From contig JAHBVV010000019.1 in NCBI GenBank assembly GCA_019637335.1, positions 391 to 64,390 of the forward strand: a stretch of 64,000 nt of DNA. The letters are read 5' to 3'. This stretch comes from Candidatus Hydrogenedentota bacterium (GTDB lineage: Bacteria; Hydrogenedentota; Hydrogenedentia; Hydrogenedentales; JAEUWI01). Made by a program: the position numbers and the translations under genes. Positions within the stretch are counted from its first letter, which is position 1. Each line of letters begins with the position of its first letter. The notes below the pieces were generated by a model that saw nothing but the letters and a program-made list of their open reading frames with translations, ran no database searches and had not been told where the DNA came from. Positions 19,250-48,616 of this stretch are shown here, in pieces.

Positions 19250-20398
19250 ATGAAACCTCCACAAACCGACGTAGAGGCGCTTGCGCAGGCGCTGGACCTC
19301 TTCACGCGAACGACAGCCAGCATGGAAGAGGCCTACCGCCACTTGCAGCAGCGCGTCACCAATCTCGACCAGGAACTCGCCACCAAGAACCTCCAGCTGG
19401 CCCTGACCACCGATTATCTGTCAAATCTGCTGGAGAGTATCACCGATGGGGTGATTGCGGTGGACATGGCGGAGCACATCACCCGGTACAACCGGGCGGC
19501 CCGGGTTGTACTCGGTTTTGAGGCGGATGAGGTGGTCGGTCGCCCGTTTCGGGAGGTTTTCGGGCGTTCGTTTCACGCGCCCAGCATGCCGGGCGCGATG
19601 GAGCTCATTTCCCGAAGTGGGAGGCGGGTTCCCGTGAGTGAGAAGGATTCCGTTATAGCGGATCGGGACGGACACCGGCTGGGGTATGTGAAGACCTTCC
19701 AGGATTTGAGCGAATTGAGCGCGCTCCGGGAGCAGGTGCGTCAGATTGATCGGCTTGCGGCGATCGGCGAGATGGCGGCGACGGTGGCGCACGAGATCCG
19801 AAACCCTCTCGGCGGAATTCGCGGTTTTGCATCGTTTTTGGCGCAGGATACACCGGAGGACGATCCCCGACATCGATTGGTCCAGAAAATCCTCGCGGGC
19901 GTCGGCAGCCTGGAGAAAGTGGTCAGCGGACTGCTGGAATACACGCGTCCCGTGGAGTTGAAGCTCGCCCCGGCGTCCTGCGCGGCGATCGCCCACGCGG
20001 CGATGCGCTATATGGAATACGATCCGGCGCGAATCACGATCTTCACTGAAGTCGATCCGGACTTGCGGGTGCTGGCGGACGCGGACCGGATCCGCCAGGT
20101 TTTGATGAACATTCTGCTGAACGCGGTGCAGAGCATTGAGGGGCGGGGCGAGATCCGGATCAGCGCGGACGCGGACGAGACGGCGGTGTACCTTTCGGTA
20201 CAGGACAATGGATGCGGCATGGACGAGGCGGCGCTCCAGCAGGTATTTTCGCCGTTTTTCACGACGAAGGAGAAGGGGACGGGCCTGGGGATGGCGGTGT
20301 CGCAGAAGATCGTGGACGGGCATGGCGGGGCCATCACGGCGGACAGCGCGCCGGGAACGGGAACCCGGATCGTGATCCAGCTGCCCCGCGCGGAGTAA
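19250..20398 (+). CDS. PAS domain sensor histidine kinase (soluble; NtrB/FleS-like)
   Basis: PAS (LLESITDGVIAVDMAEHITRYNRAARVVLGFEADEVVGRPF). H-box (ATVAHEIRNPLGGIRGF). HATPase_c (DNGCGMDEAALQQVFSPFFTTKEKGTGLGMAVSQKIVDGHGG). Confidence 0.85.
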   Translation: MKPPQTDVEALAQALDLFTRTTASMEEAYRHLQQRVTNLDQELATKNLQLALTTDYLSNLLESITDGVIAVDMAEHITRYNRAARVVLGFEADEVVGRPFREVFGRSFHAPSMPGAMELISRSGRRVPVSEKDSVIADRDGHRLGYVKTFQDLSELSALREQVRQIDRLAAIGEMAATVAHEIRNPLGGIRGFASFLAQDTPEDDPRHRLVQKILAGVGSLEKVVSGLLEYTRPVELKLAPASCAAIAHAAMRYMEYDPARITIFTEVDPDLRVLADADRIRQVLMNILLNAVQSIEGRGEIRISADADETAVYLSVQDNGCGMDEAALQQVFSPFFTTKEKGTGLGMAVSQKIVDGHGGAITADSAPGTGTRIVIQLPRAE

Positions 20399-20407
20399 GA
20401 TCGCCGG

Positions 20408-21805
20408 ATGGACACTCCCAAGGCGAAATACCGGTTGCTGGTGATTGACGACGAGTCGTTGATGCGTGAATACGTCGAAGAGGCCCTGGTTCGGGCGGGC
20501 TACACCGTCGACACGGCCTCGAATGGCGCGGACGGCGTGGCGCTGTTTGACGCGCACCAGCACGACGTGGTGGTGACGGATTTGAAGATGACCCCGATGG
20601 ACGGGCTTCAGGTGCTTCAGGCGATCGAGGAGCGTAAGACGCAGTCGCGGGTTATCGTGATGACGGCGTACGGCACGATCGAAACCGCCATCAGCGCGCT
20701 CAAGGGCGGGGCGGCGGATTACATTCTGAAACCGTTCACGCCCGACGTGCTCGAAGTGGCGGTAAGCCGGGCGCTGGAGCACCAGCGGCTGGCGCGAGAG
20801 AACCAGTACCTCCGGGAGGAGCTGAACGTTCGGTACCATGCGGCGGCGATGGTGGGGAACAGCCAGGGCATGCGCCGGGTGCATGACGAAATCGGCAAAG
20901 TCGCCAACAGCCGCGCAACCATCCTGATTCGCGGCGCGAGCGGCACGGGCAAGGAGCTTGTCGCCCGAGCGATCCACCACGGGGGCGGGCGCGCGGAGAA
21001 GCCTTTTGTGAAGGTGAACTGTGCGGCGCTGTCGGCGGGGATCCTGGAAAGCGAGCTTTTCGGTCACGAGAAGGGCGCGTTTACCGGGGCGCACGACCGG
21101 AAGATCGGGCGTTTTGAACTGGCGGATGGCGGGACGCTGCTGCTCGACGAGGTGAGCGAGATCAACGTGGAGTTGCAGGCGAAATTGTTGCGCGCGCTGC
21201 AGGAGCGGGAAATCGAGCGCGTGGGCGGCACGCGGACGATCCCGGTGGACACCCGCATCGTCGCGACGTCCAACCGCGATCTGGAGGCGGCGGTGCGCGA
21301 GGGGAAGTTCCGGGAGGACCTGTTTTTCCGGCTCAATGTGATCACGATTGAATTGCCGCCGTTGCGGGAGCGCCGGGAGGACGTCCCGCGCCTGGCCGAG
21401 CATTTTCTGCAGGTTTTCAACCGGGAGAACGGGCGCCGGATCCAGGGCTTTACAGAGGCGGCGCGCGACGCGCTGCTGGCGTATGCGTGGCCGGGGAATG
21501 TGCGTGAATTGCAGAACGCGATTGAGCGGGCGGTGGTGCTGGCGCGGGGGGAGTGGCTCACGCCGGACGATTTTCAGTTTAATACGGCGGGGCTGCTGGC
21601 CGGGGGGCGGGAGAATGGCGGCGGGTTGGCTCCGGGGACGACGGTGGCGGAGATGGAGCGCGCCTTGATCTTCAAGACGCTGGAGCATTGCGATCAGAAC
21701 CGGACGCGCGCGTCGGAATTGTTGGGGATCAGCGTCCGGACGTTGCGGAACAAGCTGAAGGAGTATCAGGACGCCGGGATTGAACCGCGAATGGACGCGA
21801 ATTGA
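20408..21805 (+). CDS. sigma-54-dependent Fis-family response regulator (NtrC/FleR-like)
   Basis: REC domain (LLVIDDE...VVTDLKMTPMDG). AAA+ sigma54-interaction domain (GASGTGKELVARAIH, ESELFGHEKGAFTGA, GAFTGA motif). C-terminal Fis HTH (NRTRASELLGISVRTLRNKLKEY). Confidence 0.9.
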   Translation: MDTPKAKYRLLVIDDESLMREYVEEALVRAGYTVDTASNGADGVALFDAHQHDVVVTDLKMTPMDGLQVLQAIEERKTQSRVIVMTAYGTIETAISALKGGAADYILKPFTPDVLEVAVSRALEHQRLARENQYLREELNVRYHAAAMVGNSQGMRRVHDEIGKVANSRATILIRGASGTGKELVARAIHHGGGRAEKPFVKVNCAALSAGILESELFGHEKGAFTGAHDRKIGRFELADGGTLLLDEVSEINVELQAKLLRALQEREIERVGGTRTIPVDTRIVATSNRDLEAAVREGKFREDLFFRLNVITIELPPLRERREDVPRLAEHFLQVFNRENGRRIQGFTEAARDALLAYAWPGNVRELQNAIERAVVLARGEWLTPDDFQFNTAGLLAGGRENGGGLAPGTTVAEMERALIFKTLEHCDQNRTRASELLGISVRTLRNKLKEYQDAGIEPRMDAN

Positions 21806-21823: not shown

Positions 21824-22260
21824 TTGGGGGTTGGTGTTGTGAGGTTGGGTGCGGTCGTTGCCGTGGGCAGGAATGCTCGCGATCCTGGGGGGCGATCGCG
21901 TAGCGCGGGTGTCGGTGGGGTTGGGGTGGCTTGGGTTGGGGGTGATCGCTCGTTCAGGGTGGTGGGGCTGGATGTGGGGTGGTTGTTGCTCCGGGCACAC
22001 GAACGCGCCTGGGGCGCGATCGCGTGGCACGGGTGTCGGTGGGGTTTGGGTGGATTGGGAAGGGTTGGGGAGCGTGTGGAATCCGGGGGTTGTGTTGGGT
22101 CAGGCAGGGATGCCTAACCTCCTGTTGCGTCGCTGGTGTGTGGTGGGGTTGGGTGGATTGGGAAGGGTTGGGGAGCGTGTGGAATCCGGGGGTTGTGTTG
22201 GGTCAGGCAGGGATGCCTGACCTCCTGTTGCGCCGCTGGTGTGGTGTAGGGTTGGTTGTT
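21824..22260. repeat. GT-rich repeat block. Includes a perfect ~105-bp tandem duplication (22044-22148 / 22149-22253) with the hairpin GTCAGGCAGGGATGCCTGAC
   Basis: The two 105-bp units differ at about three positions. The upstream part (GGTTGTTGCTCCGGGCACACGAACGCGCCTGGGGCGCGATCGCGTGGCACGGG) matches 6695-6750. Confidence 0.8.
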
Positions 22261-22261
22261 T

Positions 22262-22300
22262 GCTTTTTGGCCGATATTTTGATATATTTAGAAATATGGA
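22262..22300 (+). promoter_or_regulatory. AT-rich putative ars promoter/ArsR operator with inverted repeat ATATTT-N13-AAATAT
   Basis: TTGGCCGATATTTTGATATATTTAGAAATATGG lies immediately upstream of and overlaps the arsR start. It is the only AT-rich stretch in its GC-rich surroundings. Confidence 0.4.
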
Positions 22301-22661
22301 AACTATGGATGCGATAGGCGCGCTGCAGAGTCTGGCGCAGGAGACGCGGCTGGCGGTGTTTCGGCTGCTGGTGCGGGCGGGTCACGGCGGTATGACGGCG
22401 GGCGACATTGCGGGCGCGCTGGATGTTCCGGGGCCGACGCTTTCGTTTCATCTGAAGCACCTTTGTCATGCGGGGCTGATTACGTGTCGCCGGGACGGGC
22501 GGTCGCTGTGGTATCGCGTGGAGTTCGAGCAGGTGCGTCTGTTGCTGGCGTATCTGATGGAAGATTGTTGCCAGGGGAATCCGGCGGTATGCGGCGATGG
22601 CGCGCTGTTGTGCGGGATTTCGCCGGGAAACGATGGAGACGAACATGGCGGATGCTGCTGA
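22296..22661 (+). CDS. arsR: ArsR/SmtB family metalloregulatory transcriptional repressor
   Basis: Winged HTH (LAQETRLAVFRLL...GGMTAGDIAGALDVPGPTLSFHLKHLCHAGLI). C-terminal Cys-rich tail. Sits upstream of arsC and arsM. Confidence 0.75.
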   Translation: METMDAIGALQSLAQETRLAVFRLLVRAGHGGMTAGDIAGALDVPGPTLSFHLKHLCHAGLITCRRDGRSLWYRVEFEQVRLLLAYLMEDCCQGNPAVCGDGALLCGISPGNDGDEHGGCC

Positions 22662-23091
22662 AAAACTGAAGGTGCTGTTTCTCTGCACGGGGAATTCGTG
22701 CCGCAGCCAGATGGCGGAGGGTTGGGCGCGGGCGCTGAAGGGCAACGAAATCGAGGCGTATTCCGCGGGCATTGAGACGCACGGGCTGAATCCGAATGCG
22801 GTGCGGGTGATGGCGGAGGCGGGGGTGGACATTTCGGGTCACCAGAGCCAGCACCTGGACGAATTGAAGCATGTTTCGTTCGATTATGTGGTGACGGTTT
22901 GCGGCCACGCGCACGAGACGTGTCCGGTGTTTCCGGCGGGCGCGCGGGTGGTGCATGCCGGGTTTGACGATCCGCCGAAGCTGGCGAAGGACGCGAAGAC
23001 GGAAGCGGAACTGCTTGCGCCGTACCGGCGTGTGCGGGATGAAATCAAGGCGTACGTAGCGGGCCTGCCCCAGGCTTTTGAGGAGATCTGA
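22633..23091 (+). CDS. arsC: arsenate reductase, LMW-PTP (thioredoxin-coupled) family
   Basis: CTGNSCRSQMAEG P-loop, a DP motif and conserved Cys residues. Overlaps the arsR 3' end (operon). Confidence 0.85.
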   Translation: METNMADAAEKLKVLFLCTGNSCRSQMAEGWARALKGNEIEAYSAGIETHGLNPNAVRVMAEAGVDISGHQSQHLDELKHVSFDYVVTVCGHAHETCPVFPAGARVVHAGFDDPPKLAKDAKTEAELLAPYRRVRDEIKAYVAGLPQAFEEI

Positions 23092-23093
23092 AC

Positions 23094-23972
23094 ATGAGTG
23101 ATGCGCAAGCGATTCGAGAGACGGTCCGCGCGGGTTATGGCGCGATTGCCGAGGGCGGCGGATCGTGCTGCGGCCCGGCGACGAACTGCTGCGGCGGCGT
23201 AACGGCGGATGCCGCGACGGAGCTGGCGGCGGCGGTGGGCTATGACCTGGAGGATTTGAGCGCGCTGCCGGAGGGCGCCAACCTGGGCCTTTCCTGCGGG
23301 AACCCGACGGCGCTGGCGGCATTGAAGGCGGGCGAGGTGGTGCTCGACCTGGGCAGCGGCGGCGGCTTTGACGTGTTTATCGCGGGCCGCAAGGTGGGGC
23401 CCGGCGGCCGGGCGATCGGCGTGGACATGACGCCGGCGATGCTGGATCGCGCGCGGAAGAACATCGCCGGCTATCGCGAGCGGACGGGCCTGGACAACGT
23501 GGAGTTCCGGCTGGGCGAAATCGAGCACCTGCCGCTTCCGGATGAATCGGTGGATGTGGTTATCTCCAATTGCGTTATTAATCTGTCGCCGGACAAGCCC
23601 CAGGTGTGGCGCGAGATCGCGCGCGTGCTCAAGCCCGGCGGGCGCGTGGCCGTGAGCGACATCGCGCTGCTGAAACCGCTGCCCGCGGAGGTGGTGGCCA
23701 TGGCCGAGGCTCTGATCGGGTGCATTGCGGGCGCGGTGACCGTGGCGGAGACGGCGCGGATGGCGGAGGCGGCTGGGCTGGAGCGCATTGCGCTGGATCC
23801 GAAGAGCGCGTATGTGGACGCGATGATGGATTCGGTGCAGGATTTCTCCTACCGCGAGATGATGGCGCACCTGCCGGAAGGCGCGAAGGCGAGCGATTTT
23901 GTGGTGAGCCTCGGTGTGAGCGCGGTGAAGCCGGGCGGCGCGGAAGCGTGCTGCGGGCCGGGTTGCTGCTGA
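23094..23972 (+). CDS. arsM: arsenite S-adenosylmethionine methyltransferase
   Basis: N-terminal Cys pairs (GGSCCGPATNCCGG). SAM-binding motif VLDLGSGGGFDV. C-terminal CCGPGCC. The overall pattern matches ArsM/AS3MT. Confidence 0.85.
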   Translation: MSDAQAIRETVRAGYGAIAEGGGSCCGPATNCCGGVTADAATELAAAVGYDLEDLSALPEGANLGLSCGNPTALAALKAGEVVLDLGSGGGFDVFIAGRKVGPGGRAIGVDMTPAMLDRARKNIAGYRERTGLDNVEFRLGEIEHLPLPDESVDVVISNCVINLSPDKPQVWREIARVLKPGGRVAVSDIALLKPLPAEVVAMAEALIGCIAGAVTVAETARMAEAAGLERIALDPKSAYVDAMMDSVQDFSYREMMAHLPEGAKASDFVVSLGVSAVKPGGAEACCGPGCC

Positions 23973-23984
23973 GCGATGGGGGGC

Positions 23985-24200
23985 CGCGGGGCCGCAACCA
24001 AAGAAATGATCACCACGAAGGGCGCGAAGACCACGAAGCGAAGGAGAGACGAAGCTTTGACCGCAGAGAACGCAGAGAGCGCATAGGGTGATTTCTTGTA
24101 CGCAGAGGGATTGGGTGGATGATCTAGAGCGCATTCTTAACCACGAATGAACACCAATGCACACGAATGCATCGGGAGCAGCCGCGGGCGGCGATAAAGA
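23985..24200 (+). repeat. ~200-bp interspersed repeat element, copy 1 (GGCCGCAACCAAAGAAATGATCACCACGAAGGGCGCGAAGACCACGAAG...CGCAGAGAACGCAGAGAGCGCATAG...CCACGAATGAACACCAATGCACACGAATGC)
   Basis: Near-identical 5' part to 24346-24560. A reverse-complement copy is at 59620-59850. Confidence 0.75.
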
Positions 24201-24345
24201 ATTGTGCCCACGGATTGCACTGATGACACGGATAGAAAATGATTTCGGTCGTTGGGGTGTGCAGGCGGCTGCGTGCTGTTTCCAAGGCAGCCTGTTTGGA
24301 TTGTTCAGCATCGGAATTGTAGCGGGGTTGATCGGTGGGCGGGCG

Positions 24346-24560
24346 GCTTCTGGCCGCAACCAAAGAAATGATCACCACGAAGGGCACGAAGACCACGAAG
24401 GAAAGAAGTTGGAGAAGGATTGATATTCACGCGAAGGCGCAAATACGCAAAGAAGCTGGTGTGGGCGTGATGCACAGTCACGGCGGGCGGGGGACTGGAT
24501 TTGGAGCCACAAAGAGCGCATAGAACACAGAGAAATTCTGTGATGGCGACTGGCCTGAGG
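24346..24560 (+). repeat. ~200-bp interspersed repeat element, copy 2
   Basis: The first ~50 nt are identical to copy 1 with one mismatch. The 3' part is diverged. Confidence 0.75.
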
Positions 24561-25001
24561 GGCATCTTCTTCCCGAAGGGCCAGCGCAGCCTGGTGTGAT
24601 CGCGAGTGGAAAGACCGAATACAGCGTCCTGGCTATCATGCCGATAAACCGTTTTTCATCAATGACTTGTGCTGTGGCGTGTTTGGAAATCCTGCTAAAA
24701 AAATTGACGGATAGTAGTACGAATGAAGAACAGGTGTTTCAGGCTCGGGATTCCGGGACTGCGGTGATGGCGTCAACGGGTCGTTCAGACACAAAGCACG
24801 CGTTGTCTCAGGCTGGAAGCCCAAGCGACGTTGGCGCATGTTGAATGATCTCGGTGTCCGTGGATCCACGGGGGCTGTCATTTCGGCGGGAAACCTGTTG
24901 TTGAGACGGATCGTGGCGGCTTACGCCGGGCCGCAGAAATTTTTTGAAAGGTAAGATCGATGGGTTGCTCCACCGTACCGGCCCCGAGCACGGGCCAGGC
25001 C

Positions 25002-26156
25002 ATGGGTATTTTTGAACGTTACCTGACCGTATGGGTGGGGCTGTGCATTGCCGGCGGGATTGTGCTGGGGAAGGTGGCGCCGGGTGTCGCCTCGACGCTT
25101 GACGGTCTGTCTATCAACGTGAATGGCGCGCCGGTCGTCTCGATTCCGATTGCGGTCTGCCTGTTTTTCATGATGTACCCGATCATGGTGAAGATTGACT
25201 TCGCCAGCGTGGTGCGGGCGGGGAAATCCGGCAAGCCCGTGCTGCTCACGTTGTTCATCAACTGGGGCATCAAGCCGTTTACGATGTACGGCATCGCCGC
25301 GCTGTTTCTCGGGGTGCTGTTTCGCGGGTTCATCGGCGAAGACGCCACGGATCTGGTGAAGATGCCGTTCGGGCTTGACCTGCCGGTCGGGGCGGAGTAC
25401 GGTTCGGGCGTGGTCGTGCTGCACGAGGGGGCGAAGATGCTACAGGTCCCGCTGTGGCGCAGCTACCTGGCGGGCTGTATTCTGCTCGGCATTGCGCCCT
25501 GCACGGCGATGGTGCTGGTTTGGGGTTTCCTCTCGCGCGGCAATGACGGGCTGACCCTGGTCATGGTGGCCATCAACTCGCTGACCATGCTGGTGCTCTA
25601 CGGCGTGCTGGGCGGTTTTCTGCTGGGCGTGGGGCGGCTTCCGGTTCCGTGGCAGGCGCTGCTGCTTTCGATTGGGGCGTATGTCGCGCTGCCGCTGGTT
25701 GCGGGGTACTTCAGCCGCCGCTGGATCATCGCGGCGAAGGGGGAGGCGTGGTTCAAGGAGAAATTCCTGCACGTGCTGACGCCGATCACCATTGTGGCGC
25801 TCCTGGTGACGCTTGTGCTGCTTTTTTCTTTCAAGGGTGAAGTGATCCTTGAAAACCCGCTGACGATCCTCTGGATTGCGATCCCGCTTTTCATCCAGAC
25901 TGTGGCCATTTTCGCGCTGGGCTATTTTCTGGCATGGACGCTTAAGCTGCGTTACGAAGACGCCGCGCCGGCCGCCATGATTGGCGCGTCGAACCACTTT
26001 GAAGTCGCGATAGCGACCGCTGTGATGCTTTTCGGGCTTTCGAGCGGGGCCGCACTGGCGACGGTGGTGGGGGTGCTTATTGAAGTGCCGTTGATGCTGA
26101 TGCTCGTACGTTTCTGTCTGCGCACGCGGGGGGCCTTCGGTCCGGGCGGAGATTGA
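25002..26156 (+). CDS. acr3: ACR3 family arsenite efflux transporter
   Basis: The N-terminus [24 protein letters not shown] is typical of ACR3. There are ten TM helices, including the conserved Cys-containing TM4 region. Confidence 0.85.
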
Positions 26157-26158
26157 GT

Positions 26159-26437
26159 TCAGCGCCCGTAGTTTCGGTTCATACGGTAGACGAAGGCGAG
26201 GACTTCGGCGACGGCCTGGTAAAGCTCTTCGGGGACGGGGCTGTTGAGATCGAGTTTGGCGAGGAGGCCGACGAGGTCGGGGTCCTGCTCGATGTGGATG
26301 CCTTCGGCGCGGGCGATTTCGAGGATGCGATCGGCGATTTTTCCCTGGCCCTTGGCGATGACGCGGGGGGCGTCGTCCTCGCCGGCGTTGTAGCGGAGGG
26401 CGACGGCTTTCGGGAGGTTTTCGCGGGGTTCCTTCAT
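26159..26437 (-). CDS. FlhB C-terminal domain-like protein (EscU/YscU/FlhB family, small stand-alone form)
   Basis: 92 aa. KAVALRYNAGEDDAPRVIAKGQGKIADRILEIARAEGIHIEQDPDLVGLLAK matches the FlhB/YscU cytoplasmic domain. Sits downstream of the fliK-like gene. Confidence 0.7.
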   Translation of the reverse strand: MKEPRENLPKAVALRYNAGEDDAPRVIAKGQGKIADRILEIARAEGIHIEQDPDLVGLLAKLDLNSPVPEELYQAVAEVLAFVYRMNRNYGR

Positions 26438-27675
26438 CCTTCGAGGTCCAGTTTCTGGTAGGGCGCGAGCAGGTGTATGAGCGCCTCGATGCGGTCTCCG
26501 TCCCCGGCTTCCACGGTGACGTCCGCATCCGGGTAGCCCGCCGTGGCGAGGGCTTCCCGGAGGGCGGGCGCGGATTCCGCCAGGTGGGCGGCGACGCCGG
26601 GGTCAGCCGCGCGAATGTGACAGGCGCAATGCGTTCCGGCGGCGCGCAGGGCGACCCAGAGGGGCCCGAGGCGGGTGGTATCGAGATCCAGGATGGCCTG
26701 GGCGGGCTGCCCGCGCCGGCCCCGCCCTTGCGCTCCGCCTTCGCCGAAGAGGTGGAGGTCGGCGCGGAAGAATCCGCCGGATTCCCGCACGGGGAGCGAA
26801 AGGAACTGGTAGGGTTGATCGAGGCTGCGGAGGTTTTGCAGGTCGGCCCCGCGGGTGTGTTCGGCGAGGCGGTTTGCCGCTTCTTGAAAATTCTGTAGCT
26901 GTCCGCGTTCGGTGGCGAGGGCGCGAAACGCGGGGTCATCGAGCAGGCGCTGGGCCAGCGACGCGGCGGAATCCCGCAAGGCGGCGAGTTCCGCGCGCGC
27001 GGCGGGGCTCGCGATCGCGCGGGCGATTCGCGCGGCGGCGTGGTGTTCGGCGCGGGCCTGATCGAGCAGCGCGCGCCAGGCCGCGGGGCGATCCGAGTCG
27101 AGGCCGAGCCAGCGCGTCACCGATGCGGCGAGGTCCGGGGGGAGCACGCCTTCCGGCTGGAGGGCGGCCAACACCTGCTGGAACTGTCCCAGGGCCTGCG
27201 CGGCGCCCCGGTCCGCCAGCAGCGCGCGGACGACCGGCTCGATGGCCTGGGCTGTCGCGGGGAGCGCGGGCGGGAGCACGGCGGGAATGCGCGGCGCCAG
27301 GTCGGTTCTGCCGAGGGCCTCCAGCACGGGCTGGATGGCGCCGCTCAGGGTGGTGGCGGCGGGGGCGGCTCCTGGTGAGGTCGCGGCGGTGGCCTGTGCG
27401 CTGGTTGCGGTTGCGGTTGGCGCGGCGTGGGGCGCGACGGGGCGGATTTCGATCTGTACGCCGTTGGCGGCGGCGCGCACGGTGAGGATGACGCGCTGTC
27501 CTTCGCGCAAACCGCTATCCGGCGGGATCGGGATGGAGAGCGGGCCGGTGTGGGCGACGAGGGCGCCGTCGAGGAGCCGGATCAGGGCGCTGTGGGTCTG
27601 GCCGGTGTAGAGTGCGGCGTGGGGGGGCGCCGGGGTTACGAAAACCGGGGCCGGCAGGTGGCCGCCGGTCAGCAT
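26434..27675 (-). CDS. flagellar hook-length control protein FliK-like
   Basis: Ala/Pro-rich central region. The C-terminal Flg_hook-like segment is (LDLDTTRLGPLWVALRAAGTHCACHIRAADPGVAAHLAESAPALREALATAGY). Flagellar gene context. Confidence 0.55.
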   Translation of the reverse strand: MLTGGHLPAPVFVTPAPPHAALYTGQTHSALIRLLDGALVAHTGPLSIPIPPDSGLREGQRVILTVRAAANGVQIEIRPVAPHAAPTATATSAQATAATSPGAAPAATTLSGAIQPVLEALGRTDLAPRIPAVLPPALPATAQAIEPVVRALLADRGAAQALGQFQQVLAALQPEGVLPPDLAASVTRWLGLDSDRPAAWRALLDQARAEHHAAARIARAIASPAARAELAALRDSAASLAQRLLDDPAFRALATERGQLQNFQEAANRLAEHTRGADLQNLRSLDQPYQFLSLPVRESGGFFRADLHLFGEGGAQGRGRRGQPAQAILDLDTTRLGPLWVALRAAGTHCACHIRAADPGVAAHLAESAPALREALATAGYPDADVTVEAGDGDRIEALIHLLAPYQKLDLEG

Positions 27676-27712
27676 GGGCCGTGTCCGCCCGCGTCCGGGG
27701 GGCGCCGGGAGA

Positions 27713-28888
27713 TCATGCGCGCGGGGGCGACTGCTGCCGGGCCAGGCTGAGCATGAGCCGGACTTCGCCCTTTCCGATGCCCAGCTCGCGCGAAACTTGC
27801 GCCACGGTCATCCCGGCTTCACTGTATTCCAGGACCCGCTGTTGCAGCGGAATGCTGAGGTGATCCTGGCTTTCGGGCGGCGCGGGGTGCGTATCGCGGG
27901 ACGCGCTGTCTCCGGGCACGAAGTCGAGCGGGCGGTCGATGTCCGGGCTTGCTGGCGATTGGGCGGGCATGTTGAGGAGGGCCCGGAAGGCCTCGCGCGC
28001 GGCGTCCCCATTGCCCGGGCCGGCATCCGCGGGATCGGGTGGCGCCGGCGCGGGGGGGGCTGGGCGCGGCGGCGGTTGTTTTTCCTCGATTGCGGGTTCC
28101 GGCGGGAGGAGATCCTCGGCGATCCAGGAGGTGAAGGGGGCGCGCGTGACGCCGGTATCTCGCAAGCGTTCGGCCTCCTCGGGGGTGAGGCTTTGAGCGC
28201 GATCCCGGGCCGGGGCGGCGGCGCGGGCGGGCAGCGGATCGGGATCGCGCGGCGTCGCGGGCAGATCGCGCGGGTCCTCGCGCACCAGGGGCTCGCGCAC
28301 CAGGGCATCGCTTGTGCGCGGCAGCGCGGCGGCGGGCGTCTGGGCGGGTCGTGCGGGTTGCACAGCCGGTTCGGCGCGTGGGGGCAGGGTTGCGGCGCCG
28401 CTCAAGTTTGCGAGGGCTGGTGCGGGCTTACGCGGCGGCGCGGTTGCGGGTTCCGGGGCCTTTGCGCCGTTGGGGGCCGGGCCTGCCGGGGCGGGGGCCT
28501 GTGCGCGGGCCAGCTGGCGGTAGATTCCGTCGATCCGTGCCTGGGCCTCTTCCAGTTCCGCCGTGATGCGCTGCTGTTTTTCGTAAAGCTGCTTGTTTTT
28601 TTCCATACCCTGGTGGAGGATATGTTTGACCTGCTCCATCTTGTGTTCGAGTTCTTCGTTGAAGTCCTTCGCCAGGGATTTCTGCTGCCCGATGATGTCG
28701 CGCATGGTCTGGAAGAGAATGGTCATATCCGTGATGTCCGCACGGGCCTGCTTCAGCCGCTGGTCGGCTTTTCGCTCCGTGTGCCGGACGAGATAGGCGA
28801 AATAGGCGGCGACGGCCAGGCACGCGAGCGCCAGGGTGAAAAAGAAGACGATGAAAGCGCCCTGGTTTTGTTCGATGATTTCGTACAT
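27713..28888 (-). CDS. DUF2802-like flagellar-locus protein: N-terminal TM, coiled coil, Pro-rich linker, C-terminal HTH
   Basis: TM (FIVFFFTLALACLAVAAYFAYLV), then a coiled coil, then about 200 aa that are P/A-rich. The C-terminal segment is MTVAQVSRELGIGKGEVRLMLSLAR (HTH). Confidence 0.5.
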   Translation of the reverse strand: MYEIIEQNQGAFIVFFFTLALACLAVAAYFAYLVRHTERKADQRLKQARADITDMTILFQTMRDIIGQQKSLAKDFNEELEHKMEQVKHILHQGMEKNKQLYEKQQRITAELEEAQARIDGIYRQLARAQAPAPAGPAPNGAKAPEPATAPPRKPAPALANLSGAATLPPRAEPAVQPARPAQTPAAALPRTSDALVREPLVREDPRDLPATPRDPDPLPARAAAPARDRAQSLTPEEAERLRDTGVTRAPFTSWIAEDLLPPEPAIEEKQPPPRPAPPAPAPPDPADAGPGNGDAAREAFRALLNMPAQSPASPDIDRPLDFVPGDSASRDTHPAPPESQDHLSIPLQQRVLEYSEAGMTVAQVSRELGIGKGEVRLMLSLARQQSPPRA

Positions 28889-28946
28889 GCTCCCGCCTGT
28901 CAGCGCGGCGCCGCGCGCCGGGGCGCGGGGTTCAACCGCGCGCCTG

Positions 28947-29291
28947 TCAAATCTCTATATCGAGTGTCCGCCCTTCCGGCGCATCCGCGACGACATCTTT
29001 CTCCGCGGCGTCGTAGAAATGCCGGCTCCGTTCCTCTTCCGGGGCATCGGGCCGCCGTCCCTGGCTCCGCCGCCGCCCGGCGAAGGGGGGGCGGCGCTTT
29101 AGTTCCCGTTCGACTTCTTCGTTCTTCTGCATGGCCTGGCGCACCTGGGATTCGGCGCTGACCCGGGCTTCGGCGGCCTCGGCGGATACGCGCGCCTGGG
29201 CCGCGAGCGACGCCCGCTCGGCAATCTGCTGTATGCGCTCGGCCGCGGTTGCGCGCCCGATTTCGGTGTGCGGATCGATGGGCTGGGGCAT
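28947..29291 (-). CDS. hypothetical helical protein in the flagellar operon (an FlgM-like anti-sigma role is possible but unsupported)
   Basis: 114 aa, immediately downstream of fliA. No confident motif. Confidence 0.3.
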   Translation of the reverse strand: MPQPIDPHTEIGRATAAERIQQIAERASLAAQARVSAEAAEARVSAESQVRQAMQKNEEVERELKRRPPFAGRRRSQGRRPDAPEEERSRHFYDAAEKDVVADAPEGRTLDIEI

Positions 29292-29313
29292 GGAAACCTC
29301 CCGGGCGGTGCGG

Positions 29314-30072
29314 TCAGTCGTCTTCGTTAACCGCCTTCCGGAGCCGCTTCATGGCCGCGCTGTGGATCTGGCAGATGCGGGACTCGGAAACGTCGAGCAC
29401 CGCGCCAATCTCCTTCAGCGTAAGTTCTTCATAATAGTACAAGTTTAACACTTTTTGCTGCTGGTCGGGAAGATCGAGTATCGCGCGCACCAGCCGCTCC
29501 TTGCGCTCCTGGTGCTCGGCCGCGCTCGCGGGATGGGGCGCGGCGGGGTTCCCGATGAGTTCGAGCTTCCGCGTTTCGGCGCTGTCTTCGGACGGCAGGT
29601 AGTCGTCGAGCGAGAGAATCTGGGCGGTCTGGAGCTGGGCGACGGTGTCTTCCACTTGCTCGGCGGTGGCCCCGATTTCGCCGGCGATCGCGTCGAGGCT
29701 GGGTTCGCGGCCCTCGGCGTGGCGGAGTTTTTCGCGTGCGGCCCCGACTTTTCGGGCCATGGTGCGGAGCGAGCGCGGGGCCCAGTCCAGCGATCGGATC
29801 TGGTCGATGATGGCCCCGCGAATGCGAATGGAGGCGTAGGTCGAGAACTTGATGTCCTGCGTGTGGTCATATTTCTCGACGGCGTCCATCAGGCCCATGC
29901 ATCCCCAGCCCACGAGGTCGTCCATTTCGACGTTGCTGGGCACATGGATCGCCATGCGCCCGGCGATGAATTTGACGATCCGCATGTGGTGCAGGATCAG
30001 GGCGTCGCGGGCGGCGGAGTCGGCCGATTCCTTGAAGCGGCGCCAGAGATCTTTTTCTTCGGTATCTGTCAA
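29314..30072 (-). CDS. fliA: FliA/WhiG family RNA polymerase sigma-28 factor
   Basis: Sigma70 regions 2, 3 and 4 (HMRIVKFIAGR...; TLKEIGAVLDVSESRICQIHSAAMKRLR). Size 252 aa. Flagellar context. Confidence 0.9.
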   Translation of the reverse strand: MTDTEEKDLWRRFKESADSAARDALILHHMRIVKFIAGRMAIHVPSNVEMDDLVGWGCMGLMDAVEKYDHTQDIKFSTYASIRIRGAIIDQIRSLDWAPRSLRTMARKVGAAREKLRHAEGREPSLDAIAGEIGATAEQVEDTVAQLQTAQILSLDDYLPSEDSAETRKLELIGNPAAPHPASAAEHQERKERLVRAILDLPDQQQKVLNLYYYEELTLKEIGAVLDVSESRICQIHSAAMKRLRKAVNEDD

Positions 30073-31013
30073 CGCAGGCTCTCGATCCGCGCGCGGGTAC
30101 TGACGATTTCGGTGATGCGCAGCCCGAATTTTTCATCCACCACGACGACATCGCCCCGGGCGATGAGTTTTCCGTTCACCAGCAGGTCCACCGGCTCGTC
30201 CACGAGGTGGCCGACTTCTATGATCGAGCCGGGCCCCAGGTTGAGGATTTCGCCGATGGGCATTTCGACATGCCCCAGGCGCGCGGTGGCCACAAGTCCG
30301 ATATCGAGCACCATGTCCAGGTTGCCGTGGTAGGCGGGCTCGCTGGGGATAGTGGAATCGGTGGCGGCGGCCCCGAATCCGCTCAGGATATCGCTCATTT
30401 CCTCGGGGCTCAACTCCGCTTCCGCCGAGAATTCGCTCTCGCGCGCGGTCGGCGAAACGAGCATGTCATCCGGCACGCGATCGATCAGGGGCGCGCTGAA
30501 GAGGATGGCCCCTTCGCCCGCGATGCCCGACGGGTCGCTGAAGTGGAAGCGGGCGGCGCAGGCGCCGGTTTCCAGCAACGCGGCGAGGGCGGGCGCGCCG
30601 TCCGGGCCGCGTTCGTTTACGGCTGCGTCGTCGACGGGTTCGACGGGCGCGCCGATACGCTGGAGGAGGCTCGCGACGCCGCCGCTGAGGGCGGGGTCGG
30701 CGATTTCCTGGAGCACGGCGCGGTCCTCTTCGCTGAGAACGGATGCGCCCGTGAACTCGGTCTCCTGTATCATGGCGGCGAACTGTGCGGCGTCGTTTAC
30801 GGTGAAGAGGAGGGCGATGGCCCCGAGCTCGTTCTGGATCTGTGCCTGCATGGTGACGCCGAACTCCGTAAGCAGCGCGGCGGCGGATTCCTCCGAGAGG
30901 GGGACGGGATCGTCGATCCGGTGATCGAAGGCCGTGCTGAGCATCGCGTCAAAGACCTCGAAGGCTCCCTTGAGCAGCGCCTCACCGGCGATTCGTGCAG
31001 CGATTTCATTCAT
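30069..31013 (-). CDS. fliN: flagellar motor switch protein FliN/FliY (C-terminal SpoA domain with N-terminal extension)
   Basis: The C-terminus LDIGLVATARLGHVEMPIGEILNLGPGSIIEVGHLVDEPVDLLVNGKLIARGDVVVVDEKFGLRITEI is a canonical FliN/SpoA domain. Confidence 0.8.
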   Translation of the reverse strand: MNEIAARIAGEALLKGAFEVFDAMLSTAFDHRIDDPVPLSEESAAALLTEFGVTMQAQIQNELGAIALLFTVNDAAQFAAMIQETEFTGASVLSEEDRAVLQEIADPALSGGVASLLQRIGAPVEPVDDAAVNERGPDGAPALAALLETGACAARFHFSDPSGIAGEGAILFSAPLIDRVPDDMLVSPTARESEFSAEAELSPEEMSDILSGFGAAATDSTIPSEPAYHGNLDMVLDIGLVATARLGHVEMPIGEILNLGPGSIIEVGHLVDEPVDLLVNGKLIARGDVVVVDEKFGLRITEIVSTRARIESLR

Positions 31014-31022
31014 GCCCGTCCA

Positions 31023-32000
31023 TTACTCCTGGTAGAAGTCCAGTACCTGCAGCGCCGTCGTTTCGCGCCGCCGCCCGGGCTGCGCGAGAAACTTCGGGCG
31101 GCCCCCCAGCTCAACCACGAGCGGCCGGCGCGGCGACGTGTCGAGCTGGATAACGTCGCCCACGCTCAGGCTGGCGACGTCCTGAACGGACATGCGCGCG
31201 CGCCCGAGAATGGCCTCGACGGAAACCTTGCTTCGCAAGAGGGTGCGCAAGATGGCCTTCTGCGTGATCGCGGTCATTTCGTCGCTCTGCCGGCGCGAGT
31301 AGTGCACCTGCTGCGAGATCTGGTCGAGAATCGGGTTGAGGACTACGAGCGGAATGCAGAAGTTCATGGTGCCGACGGTTTCGCCGATGTGCACCTCATA
31401 GCCGACCAGAATCACCATTTCGCTCCCGGCGACGATCTGAACAATCAGCGGGTCGCTCTCCTGCTGAAGGACGCTCAGGCGAAACTCTATCAGCTGTTCC
31501 CACGAGCGGCGCAGGCTGTCGAGGATCATCATCACGATGCGCTGGATGATACGGTTCTCGATTTCGGTAAGCTCCCGCGGCTCGGGGAGGGTGAGGCCCT
31601 TGCCGCCGAGGACGCGGTCGACGATGGGAAAGACCATGGAGGGGCTCATTTCGATGACCGCGGTGCCCTCCAGGGGGGACATGTCGATAATCGAGAGGGC
31701 CGTGGGCCGCGCCACCGAGAGGATGAACTCGTCGTAGGTGAGCTGGTCGATGGAGGTCAGATCGACGCGCACGACGGTGCGGAGAAAGGGGGGGAAGATG
31801 ATGCTGATTTCGCGGGAAAAGGCCTCGAAAAGGCTCTGCAGGCCCTTGAGCTGTTCCTTGGAGACGCGCTCCGGGCGGCGGAAATCGTAAACACTGAGAT
31901 GAAGATCCGGTTGCGCCTCTTCCTCGGCCTCGCCGATGTCCCCCTCGGACACGGCGCCCAGGAGGAGATCGACTTCATCCTGGCTGAGAATATCGGCCAT
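31023..32000 (-). CDS. fliM: flagellar motor switch protein FliM
   Basis: The N-terminal CheY-P binding motif is MADILSQDEVDLLL. The FliM middle domain and a C-terminal SpoA-like segment are present. Confidence 0.85.
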   Translation of the reverse strand: MADILSQDEVDLLLGAVSEGDIGEAEEEAQPDLHLSVYDFRRPERVSKEQLKGLQSLFEAFSREISIIFPPFLRTVVRVDLTSIDQLTYDEFILSVARPTALSIIDMSPLEGTAVIEMSPSMVFPIVDRVLGGKGLTLPEPRELTEIENRIIQRIVMMILDSLRRSWEQLIEFRLSVLQQESDPLIVQIVAGSEMVILVGYEVHIGETVGTMNFCIPLVVLNPILDQISQQVHYSRRQSDEMTAITQKAILRTLLRSKVSVEAILGRARMSVQDVASLSVGDVIQLDTSPRRPLVVELGGRPKFLAQPGRRRETTALQVLDFYQE

Positions 32001-32049
32001 GCTAACCCTTCAATCCCGATCGCGGTTGCGCCCTGGTGGAAATTGAGGC

Positions 32050-32078
32050 GAGTATAGCACAGGGGCCGGGGTCGCGCA
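32050..32078 (-). promoter_or_regulatory. putative sigma70 promoter for the fliM operon (TTGCGC-17-TATACT on minus strand)
   Basis: The reverse complement reads CCGGTTGCGCgaccccggcccctgtgcTATACTcgcc, about 55 nt upstream of the fliM ATG. Confidence 0.35.
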
Positions 32079-32270
32079 ACCGGAACGGGGGTGATAAGAC
32101 ATTTAATTTGAGCTAGATACGCACCGGGGTGGCCTGGCCGTGGGGTTACGTCAACCCCCAGTCCCGCAGGTGCGTTGTTCCCTGTAGAATCTTTTCCCTA
32201 TCCCAAGATTCAGCGGCGGCGTGCTGGCGTCGCGGTTGCGGGCCGGGCCAGGCGGCGCCGGCTCGCGATT

Positions 32271-33113
32271 TTATTTTCGGGCGGTTGCCGCCAGGACGGT
32301 GTTGAGCAGGCGGCGCGCGCGAATGCCCCAGGCGCTGTCCTGGATTCGCAGGAGGTCCAGGCGTCCGCTCACCTTGGCTTCAAACGAGGCGAGGGTATCG
32401 GTCGAATCGATCCAGATTCGCCGGAGGTCCAAGGGGGCGTCTTCGGGGTAAACGGGGCCGTAGCGGTTGGAGCAGATCACCGAGAACCCGGCGCGAATAG
32501 CCGTTTCGCGGGAGCTGGCGTCGTAATCCAGCGCGGATCCGTAGGGATAGGCGAAGGCATCGATGGTCTCGCCGAGCACGGCTTCAAGATCGGCCTTGCA
32601 ACCGCCGATTTCGGCGGACTGGGCCCCGGGCGACAATGCGGAAAGCCGGGGGTGGGTCCGCGTATGGCCACCGATTGCGATCCCGCGCTGGCGCAGGGTC
32701 TGGATCTCTTCGGGCGAGAGAATTCGGCCGGTTTGCGAATCCAGATCGCCCGGCAGCGCGGCGCCCAGGCATCCGGACACGACGAAGATGGTCGCGGGAA
32801 AACCGTATCGCTCCAAGATGGGGAGCGCGTGGATGAAATTGTCCTGATAGCCGTCGTCGAAGGTGAGCGCGACGCCCCCGCCGCCGGTTGCGGCTTCCGC
32901 CAGGGGGATGACATTGGTGTGGCTCGCGAGCCAGGCCATCTGATCGGCGAAGGCTTCCGGGGTTACGTTCATTTCGTGGGCGCGGTACCCGATGCTGTGG
33001 TACGTGAGAATGCGTGCGGCCGCCGGGGCGCCGGGGAAAGAAGGCCCCAGGGCGGCGGCGGCGGCGCGCGCGGCGCGCTTGAGCCGGGTTTTGGCGGCTC
33101 GCGCGCTACTCAC
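32271..33113 (-). CDS. polysaccharide deacetylase (NodB/CE4 family)
   Basis: The NodB-type motifs are ILTYHSIG, TFDDGYQDN and GGHTRTHPRL. A GTG start overlaps the stop of the upstream GT2 gene (GTGAGTAG). The six-frame ORF extends further upstream, but the extension is an out-of-frame overlap with the GT2. Confidence 0.75.
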   Translation of the reverse strand: MSSARAAKTRLKRAARAAAAALGPSFPGAPAAARILTYHSIGYRAHEMNVTPEAFADQMAWLASHTNVIPLAEAATGGGGVALTFDDGYQDNFIHALPILERYGFPATIFVVSGCLGAALPGDLDSQTGRILSPEEIQTLRQRGIAIGGHTRTHPRLSALSPGAQSAEIGGCKADLEAVLGETIDAFAYPYGSALDYDASSRETAIRAGFSVICSNRYGPVYPEDAPLDLRRIWIDSTDTLASFEAKVSGRLDLLRIQDSAWGIRARRLLNTVLAATARK

Positions 33114-33954
33114 GCGGTCGCTCCCGCGCGGTGAGGAGCCCCCAGGCGTAGCCGGCCGCATAGCCGCAATAGGCGCCGAAGCGGATGAACTGAAAGCGCG
33201 CGAACGCCCACAGGAGCCGCAGGGGAAAGCGGGCGAGCCGGTAGGGAAGGGACGTGCGCGGCTGGAAGTCCCGGTCGTGGAGGGATTCATGGGTCTCCAC
33301 GACGCTGTCCGGCTGGAACTTCCAGGCGTATGCGGAGCCGTAGCCATTTCGGAAGAAGACGCGGAGCAGGCCGCGCCAGTTGGGGGGTAGGGGGTGGTGG
33401 ATGGTGGCGCCGGGCGCGAGCACCACGCGGTAGCCGGCGGCGCGGAGGCGCGCGCGGAGGTCGGGGTCGAGGCCGCGGAGGATATCTTCCCGCTCGCCGC
33501 CGACCTCGTGGAAAACCCGGCGGGGAATGGCGCAGCAGCCGTGGCAGGCGAGATCGCTGTCGGTAATCTCGCGGACGGCGGGCGTGTGGAATCGGGGAAA
33601 CTGGCGCGCCGCGCGCTTTTGGAAGGGGCTCGCGTCCGGGTGGGGCACGATGCTGGCCCCGGCGAGGCCGATCTGTTCGTCCGCATCGAGGGCCGCCACG
33701 AGGCGCGCGAAGACATCGGCGTCGGCCAGCAGGCTGTCGTCGTCCAGGATCACGAGTATGTCGCCTCGGGCCCGGGCGGCGCCCTGGTTGATCGCGCGGC
33801 CCTGGGGGGCGACGCCCGTGATCAGGAGGGTTTCATGGCTGGTGAAGGTCTGGCGCCGGATGCTTTCGAGGAGTCTGGGAACCGCGCCGTTGCGATGGCC
33901 GTCCAGCGAGGGGATGACGATGGAAATGCGGGGGGTGTCGGCGGGCGCGTTCAT
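33106..33954 (-). CDS. glycosyltransferase family 2
   Basis: ISIVIPSLD..., the DDD region (ILVILDDDSLL) and a GT-A fold pattern. Confidence 0.8.
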   Translation of the reverse strand: MNAPADTPRISIVIPSLDGHRNGAVPRLLESIRRQTFTSHETLLITGVAPQGRAINQGAARARGDILVILDDDSLLADADVFARLVAALDADEQIGLAGASIVPHPDASPFQKRAARQFPRFHTPAVREITDSDLACHGCCAIPRRVFHEVGGEREDILRGLDPDLRARLRAAGYRVVLAPGATIHHPLPPNWRGLLRVFFRNGYGSAYAWKFQPDSVVETHESLHDRDFQPRTSLPYRLARFPLRLLWAFARFQFIRFGAYCGYAAGYAWGLLTARERPRE

Positions 33955-47581: not shown

Positions 47582-48616
47582 GAACGCATGCGCCCCGCGC
47601 GCTACCGCCTCGCGGCCGGTCGGCGAAGTGCGAGCCGCGGGTCATCTCGCGGTCGCATCTGATCGCGGTCTCCGGATTCGACCGCCACCGAGAATCCGCC
47701 CCGGACCCACAGCCGGGCTATGGCCCTCGGATTTTCAGCTTGTTTGTTTCCCGCAGTTCATGCTAGACTCCACGAGTTAGTTCACTGGTTCTGTTCCGGC
47801 CCCAAAGCCGGCGACAGATGAAATGGGAACCCGCGCACACGGCGTCTGCTGATCGTGCGGCCTCAACACCGGAGCCTCTCCGGCGTTGACTGGCGTGAGA
47901 ATCCGGGACTGCCCCGCAGCGGTATTCAGGAACGACCGCCGTCCGATGAGCGCATCGCTCAGGGAAAGCACTGGCCCGACAGGGCCGGGAAGCGACGGCC
48001 AGTAGAGATCCACGAAACACATCGTGGCCCGCCTGAGAGTCCGAAGACCTGCCCGTGGATGGAGGTGCCGATTATAGGTGCCGGCTGCGATAAGGCCTTC
48101 GCGGGAAAGGCTGTTGTGGCGTTGCGGATCCGTGCCCCGGGCGCATCACGACTTCGTGCCGTGACTCCGAGGCAAAGGGTAATCTTGCAGCTCACTTCGC
48201 CCTCCCCGATCAATTCCCTGTCGCCGCGGCTCCATCCGGCCCCCCCGAACAATTGGTTTCCGCAGCCCCCCCACACGGGGTGTCTGCGGGGTTCTTCATC
48301 GCCAGGTCGATGCGGAACCGGATCCTCGCGGGTAGGGCCCGACCGGAGTATAGCGAACTGTTCCGTCACGTCATCGGCCGTGGCGGTGCGGCGCGCCGTA
48401 CCCCCATCGCCAGACCCGCCATCCGGTCACCCCGCATCGCCGGGCCCGCAGCGCCGGCCTCCATCCCGCTGGCGCGGAAAGGAGTGATCGGTTCGTCGGC
48501 GCCTTGAACGGGCACAATTGCGGCGCATTTTGCGGGCCGCGCCGCCGCGACAAGCGCCCGTTTAACCTTTTTCCACTCGCGTACTATCGGTCGTGAGTAT
48601 TGGAGCATTGCAGCTA

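Follow-up and report, generated by a model that had tools for sequence, protein, structure and literature searches.

A probable seven-gene flagellar operon of Candidatus Hydrogenedentota combining C-ring, sigma-28, SwrB/FipA-like and fliK-flhX genes

The fla/che operon of Bacillus subtilis includes the gene segments fliM-fliY and sigD-swrB. FipA (also FlrD), a DUF2802 protein of Vibrio, Shewanella and Pseudomonas, is known in Vibrio to recruit FlhF, and its substitutions G110A and L129A abolish FlhF binding (PMC11620751). A FliA-dependent fliK2-flhX operon has been described beside the canonical fliK of Pseudomonas putida, and the FlhX protein of Helicobacter pylori (HP1575) partly replaces the C-terminal subdomain FlhB-CC (bioRxiv 10.1101/2021.08.29.457346); a flhX-fliK pair is also recorded in Nitratiruptor (PMC9321776). 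In Salmonella FlhB the residues A286, P287, A341 and L344 form a docking pocket for early export substrates, and export switches to late substrates once the cleaved FlhB C-terminal domain has been removed in a FliK-dependent manner (PMC13344023, 2026). In the current analysis of a 64-kb stretch of DNA from Candidatus Hydrogenedentota, referred to throughout as the window, we have identified a block of seven genes that shares features with each of these systems. It probably constitutes a self-contained flagellar operon with the order fliM-fliY-fliA-small helical protein-swrB/fipA-like-fliK-like-flhX. The members of the block are as follows.

31023..32000, minus strand: fliM, 325 aa, C-ring switch protein (PF02154 and TIGR01397)
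30069..31013, minus strand: fliY-type fliN, 314 aa, CheC-like N-terminal domain and FliN domain
29314..30072, minus strand: fliA, 252 aa, sigma-28 of the FliA/WhiG family (TIGR02479)
28947..29291, minus strand: gene for a 114-aa protein of an unannotated family, with no match in Pfam, NCBIfam or PDB
27713..28888, minus strand: gene for a 391-aa putative membrane protein assigned to the SwrB/FipA family (DUF6115)
26434..27675, minus strand: fliK-like gene, 413 aa (PF02120, Flg_hook)
26159..26437, minus strand: flhX, 92 aa, free-standing FlhB C-terminal CC subdomain (PF01312)

The fliK-flhX pairing has already been described in Pseudomonas and Nitratiruptor. The packaging of a C-ring switch, sigma-28, a SwrB/FipA-type protein and a specificity-switch pair behind one putative promoter is, as judged from the sequences compared here, unusual yet phylum-wide. 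The packing of the seven open reading frames (ORFs) is operon-like, with intergenic gaps of 9, -4, 22, 58, 37 and -4 nt in the order from fliM to flhX. The two overlaps of 4 nt join the fliA start to the fliY stop and the flhX start to the fliK stop, and no excess of terminators is seen across the block. An earlier reading of the window from its sequence alone (the sequence-only reading) had placed seven co-directional minus-strand ORFs at these coordinates and named five of them as FliM, FliN/Y, FliA, a FliK-like protein and a protein resembling the FlhB C-terminal domain. The ORFs are present as claimed and all five identities score above Pfam thresholds, Pfam scores being judged here against gathering cut-offs and NCBIfam scores against curated cut-offs. 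The region is a real and largely ordinary flagellar gene cluster, and the gene calls were essentially right.

A scan with FliM, taking one genome per species, gave 80 related loci in which FliM identity ranges from 57 to 87%. The best relatives, with 86-87% identity, are syntenic over the whole block and are named Candidatus Hydrogenedentota or Hydrogenedentales, a phylum placed by NCBI in the FCB group; the 'PVC-like' label given to the lineage by the sequence-only reading is therefore unsupported. When the seven proteins are compared with the 80 loci by tblastn, every sufficiently long locus proves to carry all seven genes in unchanged order, down to 57% FliM identity, and FliA is 56-84% identical in all the related loci. 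The ratio of non-synonymous to synonymous substitution rates (dN/dS), computed pairwise against three relatives, lies between 0.03 and 0.43 for every one of the seven genes, the values being rough with dS near saturation, and purifying selection appears to act on each of them. The conserved order in about 80 loci, taken together with these ratios, argues against a chance grouping of ORFs and for working genes held together by selection rather than a remnant. The flanks are variable: on clustering of all the flanking ORFs of the 80 loci only the seven genes of the block are general, and neither the clustering nor Pfam revealed a flagellar gene among the recurrent flanking clusters. Scanning 20 of the larger ORFs elsewhere in the window with Pfam also identified no flagellar gene, FliG, FlhA and full-length FlhB included, in agreement with the earlier view that the block is only part of the flagellar regulon.

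FliM scores 205.4 against PF02154 (cut-off 27), 66 bits against PF01052 and 303.2 against TIGR01397 (cut-off 219.6). Its residues 5-14, LSQDEVDLLL, represent the N-terminal motif that binds phosphorylated CheY (CheY-P), for which the expected form is LSQxE(I/V)DxLL; the strict pattern is found in 56 of the 76 ORFs of the FliM cluster. FliA scores 255.8 against TIGR02479 (cut-off 189.6), and its Sigma70 regions 2, 3 and 4 score 57.2, 24.2 and 66.9 respectively.

The product of the second gene is comprised of a CheC-like N-terminal domain (residues 1-185), a linker with the motif LSxxEMxDIL (201-210) and a C-terminal FliN domain (231-314) that scores 78.7 against PF01052 (FliMN_C, cut-off 23.8) and 85.8 against TIGR02480 (cut-off 84.05). 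A profile built from 68 orthologues matches the middle domain of Thermotoga maritima FliY (4HYN) with an E-value of 5e-7 over residues 17-181, and CheC weakly. The AlphaFold2 model has a predicted local distance difference test (pLDDT) score above 90 for residues 1-185, and a Foldseek search with this N-terminal domain also retrieves 4HYN (E=5e-10, template modelling score 0.76, root mean square deviation 3.2 A), followed by CheC, CheX and the middle domains of FliM. On the basis of the profile and Foldseek matches to 4HYN the FliN-domain protein is of the FliY type. Phosphatases of the CheC/CheX/FliY group carry the signature D/S-x3-E-x2-N. Intact ExxN sites of the CheC type were not found in the 68 FliY sequences: site 1 is without E or N, and at site 2 E103 is conserved in 61 of the 68, while the five commonest residues at the +3 position, D, E, G, S and T, do not include N. 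The protein shows the CheC fold and is probably no phosphatase. An N-terminal CheY-binding peptide occurs within the first 40 residues in 0 of 67 orthologues. The linker motif (window 30384-30413, minus strand) resembles the LSQDEVDLLL of FliM; it is conserved and internal. As in the B. subtilis fla/che operon (on its SwrB see PMC4526659 and bioRxiv 10.1101/2021.04.30.442225), FliM is followed by a FliY-type protein made up of CheC-like and FliN domains, although the FliY described here differs from that of B. subtilis in having neither the N-terminal CheY-binding peptide nor the ExxN phosphatase sites.

Two elements have been recognised upstream of fliM.

32051..32079, minus strand: promoter-like motif, -35 hexamer TTGCGC, 17-nt spacer and extended -10 TGTGCTATACT
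32092..32120, minus strand: conserved AT-rich element GTATCTAGCTCAAATTAAATGTCTTATCA, located some 12 nt before the -35 hexamer

From the end of the -10 hexamer to the fliM ATG the distance is about 50 nt, and TTGCGC-N17-TGTGCTATACT occurs once in the window, with 0.02 matches expected. Over 1.15 Mb of related loci, 41 of the 43 matches to the extended -10 motif lie at most 200 nt upstream of fliM; the remaining two stand in front of yicC-gmk. Position by position, the consensus reads cTTGCGC-N17-CTGTGcTATACTCgcc. As the housekeeping pair yicC-gmk has an equal -35/-10 layout (locus L007), we interpret the motif as a strong promoter of the extended -10 type for the primary sigma factor, and the operon is probably transcribed from this housekeeping-type promoter and not from a sigma-28 or sigma-54 promoter. 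A generic sigma-70 scan does not pick up the motif, since TTGCGC agrees with TTGACA at only three of six positions. The sigma-28 promoters for which the sequence-only reading had proposed a search were not found: neither the sigma-28 (TAAA-N13-17-CCGATA) nor the sigma-54 consensus (TGGCAC-N5-TTGC) is present upstream of fliM in 75 loci, and the window contains no sigma-28 consensus TAAA-N15-GCCGATAA anywhere, nor any late flagellar gene. The form TTGCGC-N17-TGTGCTATACTCGC is nearly nucleotide-invariant upstream of fliM across the phylum (loci L002-L081). The AT-rich element has the pattern GTATC...AAAnAAA...TTAtc. In many Hydrogenedentota loci its distance from the promoter is constant, also where the glycosyltransferase and deacetylase neighbours described below are missing, and it is a candidate UP element or binding site for a regulator.

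The FliK-like and FlhX calls, which the sequence-only reading had made to depend on hidden Markov model searches, pass both of the profiles concerned. The FliK-like protein scores 40.7 against Flg_hook (PF02120, T3S4-type, cut-off 29.8) over residues 324-394, a match shared by 37 of the 38 orthologues of the 413-aa protein, and is organised as a conserved small N-terminal domain (about residues 20-78), a low-complexity Ala/Pro middle and the C-terminal Flg_hook domain. FlhX scores 76.2 against Bac_export_2 (PF01312, cut-off 24.4) over profile positions 262-335 of 335. It aligns to residues 274-352 of Salmonella FlhB, starting just after the NPTH autocleavage site, and has neither an NPTH site nor a membrane domain, its N-terminus being MKEPRENLPK. 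The residues A23, P24, A77 and L80 of FlhX are the equivalents of A286, P287, A341 and L344 of the FlhB pocket and are conserved in 55-56 of the 56 orthologues. Since the pocket is intact in FlhX and the removal of FlhB-CC flips the switch, a soluble copy could re-arm, buffer or substitute for the domain. The conservation of the pocket fits the 2026 model of the switch by FlhB removal and makes the function of FlhX testable.

The P. putida fliK2-flhX operon, H. pylori FlhX and the Nitratiruptor flhX-fliK pair resemble the pair described here in that a gene with a Flg_hook domain adjoins one for a free-standing FlhB C-terminal domain of about 90 aa; the pairing had been called known but poorly understood, and the first and the last of these examples bear this out. 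The P. putida pair makes up a late operon of its own that depends on sigma-28, whereas the pair described here forms the distal end of an operon that encodes sigma-28 and the C-ring and has a putative housekeeping-type promoter. There is about an even chance that the FliK-like protein and FlhX are an auxiliary second copy of the P. putida fliK2-flhX type, tuning or backing up the switch, with a canonical fliK and a self-cleaving full-length flhB encoded elsewhere. The occurrence of fliK2-flhX beside the canonical fliK of P. putida and the partial replacement of FlhB-CC by H. pylori FlhX provide precedents. The N-terminal region of the FliK-like protein resembles a small folded domain, unlike the disordered N-terminus of FliK, and the family profile misses the solved canonical FliK. 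Against such an auxiliary role, the fliK listed for the Nitratiruptor system is the one in its flhX-fliK pair, and the Hydrogenedentota pair shares a core operon with fliM and fliA and is present in every genome. The only match of the FliK-like profile in PDB was to a de novo designed protein (E=0.002), which is not FliK.

The 391-aa protein is encoded downstream of fliA with one gene between them. It has a hydrophobic region at residues 11-33, predicted to be a single transmembrane segment, a conserved junction and coiled coil with the consensus DxTxMxILFQTMRDxxxQQKxLA (here MTILFQTMRD...), a variable Pro/Ala-rich linker and a C-terminal helix-turn-helix (HTH) similar to sigma region 4, with the consensus RVxEYsdAGMxxxEIAxELGIGKGEVRLiLSL. 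The HTH had earlier been regarded as of the DUF2802 type; an HTH-like domain of a related family is indeed present, but the protein fails DUF2802 (14.8, threshold 33.5) and passes DUF6115 (33.5, cut-off 27). Among 49 relatives, comprising Hydrogenedentota orthologues, three neighbours from Firmicute contexts and SwrB, DUF6115 is matched by all 49, Sigma70_r4_2 by 28 and DUF2802 by 43 at a sub-threshold level (best E=2.7e-4). SwrB of B. subtilis, in a provisional sequence that agrees with the published mutations at the five positions H13, L48, F51, L53 and L155, matches DUF6115 with 27.0 bits, at the gathering score, over positions 12-131 (full length) and DUF2802 with a sub-threshold 15.7 bits.

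Because BLASTP between the 391-aa protein and SwrB gives an E-value of 0.11, insignificant alone, the link to SwrB rests on the profile matches and on motif spacing. E375 is invariant across the joint alignment, where G359 and L378 are conserved in more than 90% of the sequences; the spacing of G359-x15-E375-x2-L378 (16/19) is that of G110/E126/L129 in FipA and of G136/E152/L155 in SwrB. The L155P variant of SwrB is defective in restoring sigma-D-dependent expression (bioRxiv 10.1101/2021.04.30.442225). SwrB L155P and FipA L129A fall on one aligned position. We conclude from the sequence comparisons that the 391-aa protein is a member of a SwrB/FipA superfamily, and the C-terminal regions of SwrB and FipA/FlrD appear to represent one shared G-x15-E-x2-L domain. 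No mention of DUF6115 was found in the literature searched, and the main text of the FipA paper (PMC11620751) mentions neither SwrB nor Bacillus subtilis.

The resemblance to FipA/FlrD of Vibrio, Shewanella and Pseudomonas (PMC11620751) extends to an N-terminal membrane anchor, a coiled region, the C-terminal G, E and L at spacings of 16 and 19 and a gene at the end of a fliA-containing operon; the sub-threshold DUF2802 score sets the 391-aa protein apart. With the B. subtilis fla/che operon the locus shares a sigma-28 gene followed by one for a single-pass DUF6115/SwrB membrane protein that has a cytoplasmic C-terminal HTH-like domain. It differs in that about 25 intervening genes (export gate, flhF/G and che genes) are absent from the operon, in the 114-aa gene that separates fliA from the SwrB-like gene, and in the SwrB-like protein itself, which is more than twice as long as SwrB and contains the Pro-rich linker. 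This sequence-level bridge between SwrB and FipA/FlrD joins two separately studied proteins and offers a testable idea for the action of SwrB, a protein that has long lacked an explanation: if the two are indeed one family, SwrB may act through FlhF, or FipA on the export gate.

The one new element of the locus is the unannotated family of the 114-aa protein. An alignment of 63 sequences reveals an invariant MPQPxD N-terminus, invariant R19, R26 and L29, a basic NPFxGRRR patch and a C-terminal LD(I/V)x(I/V) motif, and the AlphaFold2 model consists of one long helix over residues 7-66 (pLDDT above 90 for 11-50) with a disordered tail. A word-based search gave 126 relatives, all unnamed, those labelled with an organism being Hydrogenedentes, and the family profile matches 113 clusters among 1.84 billion representative proteins. 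No true match was found in Pfam, in NCBIfam (E<=0.1) or in a profile search of PDB. The PDB matches to a C-terminal peptide of Nibrin (E=0.18) are due to chance. The sequence-only reading had remarked that the protein is without the FlgM signature, and FlgM is indeed rejected as its identity: there is no match to PF04316 or any other Pfam family, and hhalign gives a probability of at most 0.1% against provisional FlgM sequences of Salmonella and B. subtilis. Like FlgM the protein is small, partly disordered and encoded beside fliA, whereas it has no sequence similarity to FlgM and its conserved part is the N-terminal helix and not the C-terminus. The c-di-GMP (cyclic di-guanosine monophosphate) motif of RsiG, E-x3-S-x2-R-x3-Q-x3-D, was not seen in the helix on inspection by eye.

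Homologues of the 114-aa protein outside Hydrogenedentota came from the weakest of the profile matches. In Firmicute metagenome-assembled genomes (MAGs) the context is cheD-x-sigD-FapA-[114-aa homologue]-DUF6115(SwrB)-rpsB-tsf-pyrH-frr, the end of a Bacillus-type fla/che operon, and in a lineage of 31% guanine-plus-cytosine content it is flhA-flhF-flhG-...-sigma-FapA-[114-aa homologue]-SwrB-like. In two unclassified lineages (L085 and L089) the homologue directly follows fliA at the end of fliOPQR-flhBA-flhFG-fliA and the SwrB-like gene does not lie beside it; the FliA of L085, the only one of the two that was compared, is about 41% identical to the FliA described here. The 114-aa family is thus real and multi-lineage, its constant neighbour being the sigma-28 gene and its frequent neighbour the SwrB-like gene. 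A module sigD-fapA-X-swrB, with X the 114-aa homologue and fapA encoding a DUF342 protein, recurs in the Firmicute-type operons; B. subtilis presumably lacks it. The FapA genes of the module are placed as follows.

Locus L083, 6034-7998: FapA (DUF342) gene
Locus L087, 7268-8890: FapA (DUF342) gene
Locus L090, 5357-6979: FapA (DUF342) gene

Tied to the sigma-28 gene in several distant lineages, the family is a candidate for a missing regulator, and we tentatively propose that the 114-aa protein is a regulator or coupling factor of sigma-28 distinct from FlgM. It is rather doubtful that the protein mainly partners the SwrB-like membrane protein, for instance its coiled coil, and is unrelated to sigma-28, its position reflecting operon history. 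Its gene lies immediately upstream of the DUF6115/SwrB-like gene in Hydrogenedentota and in the two Firmicute-type contexts, where FapA stands between it and sigD, and long helices are predicted in both proteins; in L085 and L089, however, the homologue directly follows fliA with no SwrB-like gene adjoining. A wider proposal would make the 114-aa protein a new class of sigma-28 partner, anti-sigma or coupling factor, unlike FlgM and present in Hydrogenedentota, Firmicutes and at least two other lineages, and would at the same time unite SwrB and FipA/FlrD in one ancient family with a membrane anchor and a domain similar to sigma region 4. It is somewhat unlikely that both parts hold together.

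Two further explanations touch the nature of the block itself. FlhB might be naturally split, with a membrane part encoded elsewhere without the CC subdomain and FlhX as the essential CC piece that does not arise by NPTH autocleavage. FlhX does start at the equivalent of Salmonella residue 274, just past the cleavage site, keeps all four pocket residues and is found at the same place in every related locus of sufficient length, and the 2026 model treats the CC domain as a removable module (PMC13344023); the characterised organisms with FlhX nevertheless all have full-length FlhB too, full-length flhB genes coding for 356-357 aa are present in other lineages encountered here, and a split is improbable. 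It is highly improbable that the block is a repurposed or decaying flagellar or type III secretion system remnant in a non-motile organism, as might be suggested by the 20 scanned ORFs of the 64 kb that include no other flagellar gene and by the lost phosphatase motif of FliY, given seven genes under apparent purifying selection with their order kept across the phylum, FliM and FliA scores above equivalog/subfamily cut-offs, the CheY-binding peptide retained in FliM, the flagellin genes reported for the phylum (PMC7018530) and the magnetotactic members that have been described.

A number of points weigh against the reading of the block as a self-contained flagellar operon with the identities assigned above. 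Neither the 20 scanned ORFs of the window nor the conserved flanks contribute a flagellar gene beyond the block, and the promoter is a sequence motif only. The FliY-type protein, besides being without ExxN, scores 105.7 against the NCBIfam FliY equivalog NF005995, far below the cut-off of 218. FlhX reaches 103.7 with TIGR00789 (flhB_rel), just under the cut-off of 117.35, and the profile of the FliK-like family finds no solved FliK in PDB at E<=1. The match of the 391-aa protein covers only positions 97-133 of the 134 in the DUF6115 profile, which is its last third, and the SwrB and FlgM sequences used in the comparisons are provisional.

If the self-contained operon is accepted, all of its products would work on the cytoplasmic side of the basal body as it forms. 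FliM and FliY would build the C-ring switch, FliM keeping the docking peptide for CheY-P, and the membrane-anchored SwrB/FipA-like protein would help to position or activate the export apparatus, a role that SwrB has in Bacillus and that FipA fills in gamma-proteobacteria by way of FlhF. The T3S4 domain of the FliK-like protein would act on the FlhB C-terminal domain and flip export from early to late substrates, and FlhX, which offers the same domain in soluble form and with its early-substrate pocket intact, could serve as a spare part, a reset or a buffer. FliA would then transcribe the late genes. The 114-aa protein may modulate sigma-28 or couple it to the SwrB-like protein, and this is the weakest point of the scheme. 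With this locus the uncultured Hydrogenedentota join the lineages that have Firmicute-like flagellar features (FliY and a SwrB-type protein) together with a fliK-flhX pair.

Many third-party 'binchicken' MAGs labelled as uncultured Nitrospirales or Nitrospiraceae carry a block of the Hydrogenedentota type, with FliM 62-73% identical (loci L017, L019-L021, L025, L026, L028-L031 and others), and these labels are probably wrong. The recurrent neighbours of the block that were scanned include a GT2 glycosyltransferase (23 loci) and a polysaccharide deacetylase (21 loci), a pair that stands upstream of fliM in about a third of the loci. In the window the two lie directly upstream of fliM on the same strand (32271-33954, minus), and a role in flagellar or envelope modification is possible for this candidate pair. 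Other recurrent neighbours include histidine kinases, beta-ketoacyl synthase, DUF4432, TPR and hydrolase proteins and one cluster without a Pfam match.

On the other side of the block, a convergent cluster at 22239-26156 (plus strand), which from names read off the translations we take to encode ArsR, ArsC, an ArsM-like methyltransferase and an ACR3 efflux protein, runs towards flhX with 2 nt between the two stop codons. The neighbour clusters that recur in the related loci do not include it. The gap separating the arsM-like gene from ACR3 contains a direct repeat of 57 nt in two copies that are 93% identical (23990-24046 and 24352-24408, plus strand); elsewhere in the window the repeat does not occur. 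A PAS histidine kinase and a sigma-54 activator of the NtrC type are encoded as a pair at 19250-21805 (plus strand), 4 kb from the flagellar block; a flagellar role similar to FlrBC/FleSR is unsupported, as the clusters of neighbouring genes that recur in the related loci do not include the pair. A cobalamin riboswitch (Rfam RF00174, 66.6 bits) has been identified at 47769-48070 (plus strand), about 500 nt upstream of a gene for a PEP-CTERM protein.

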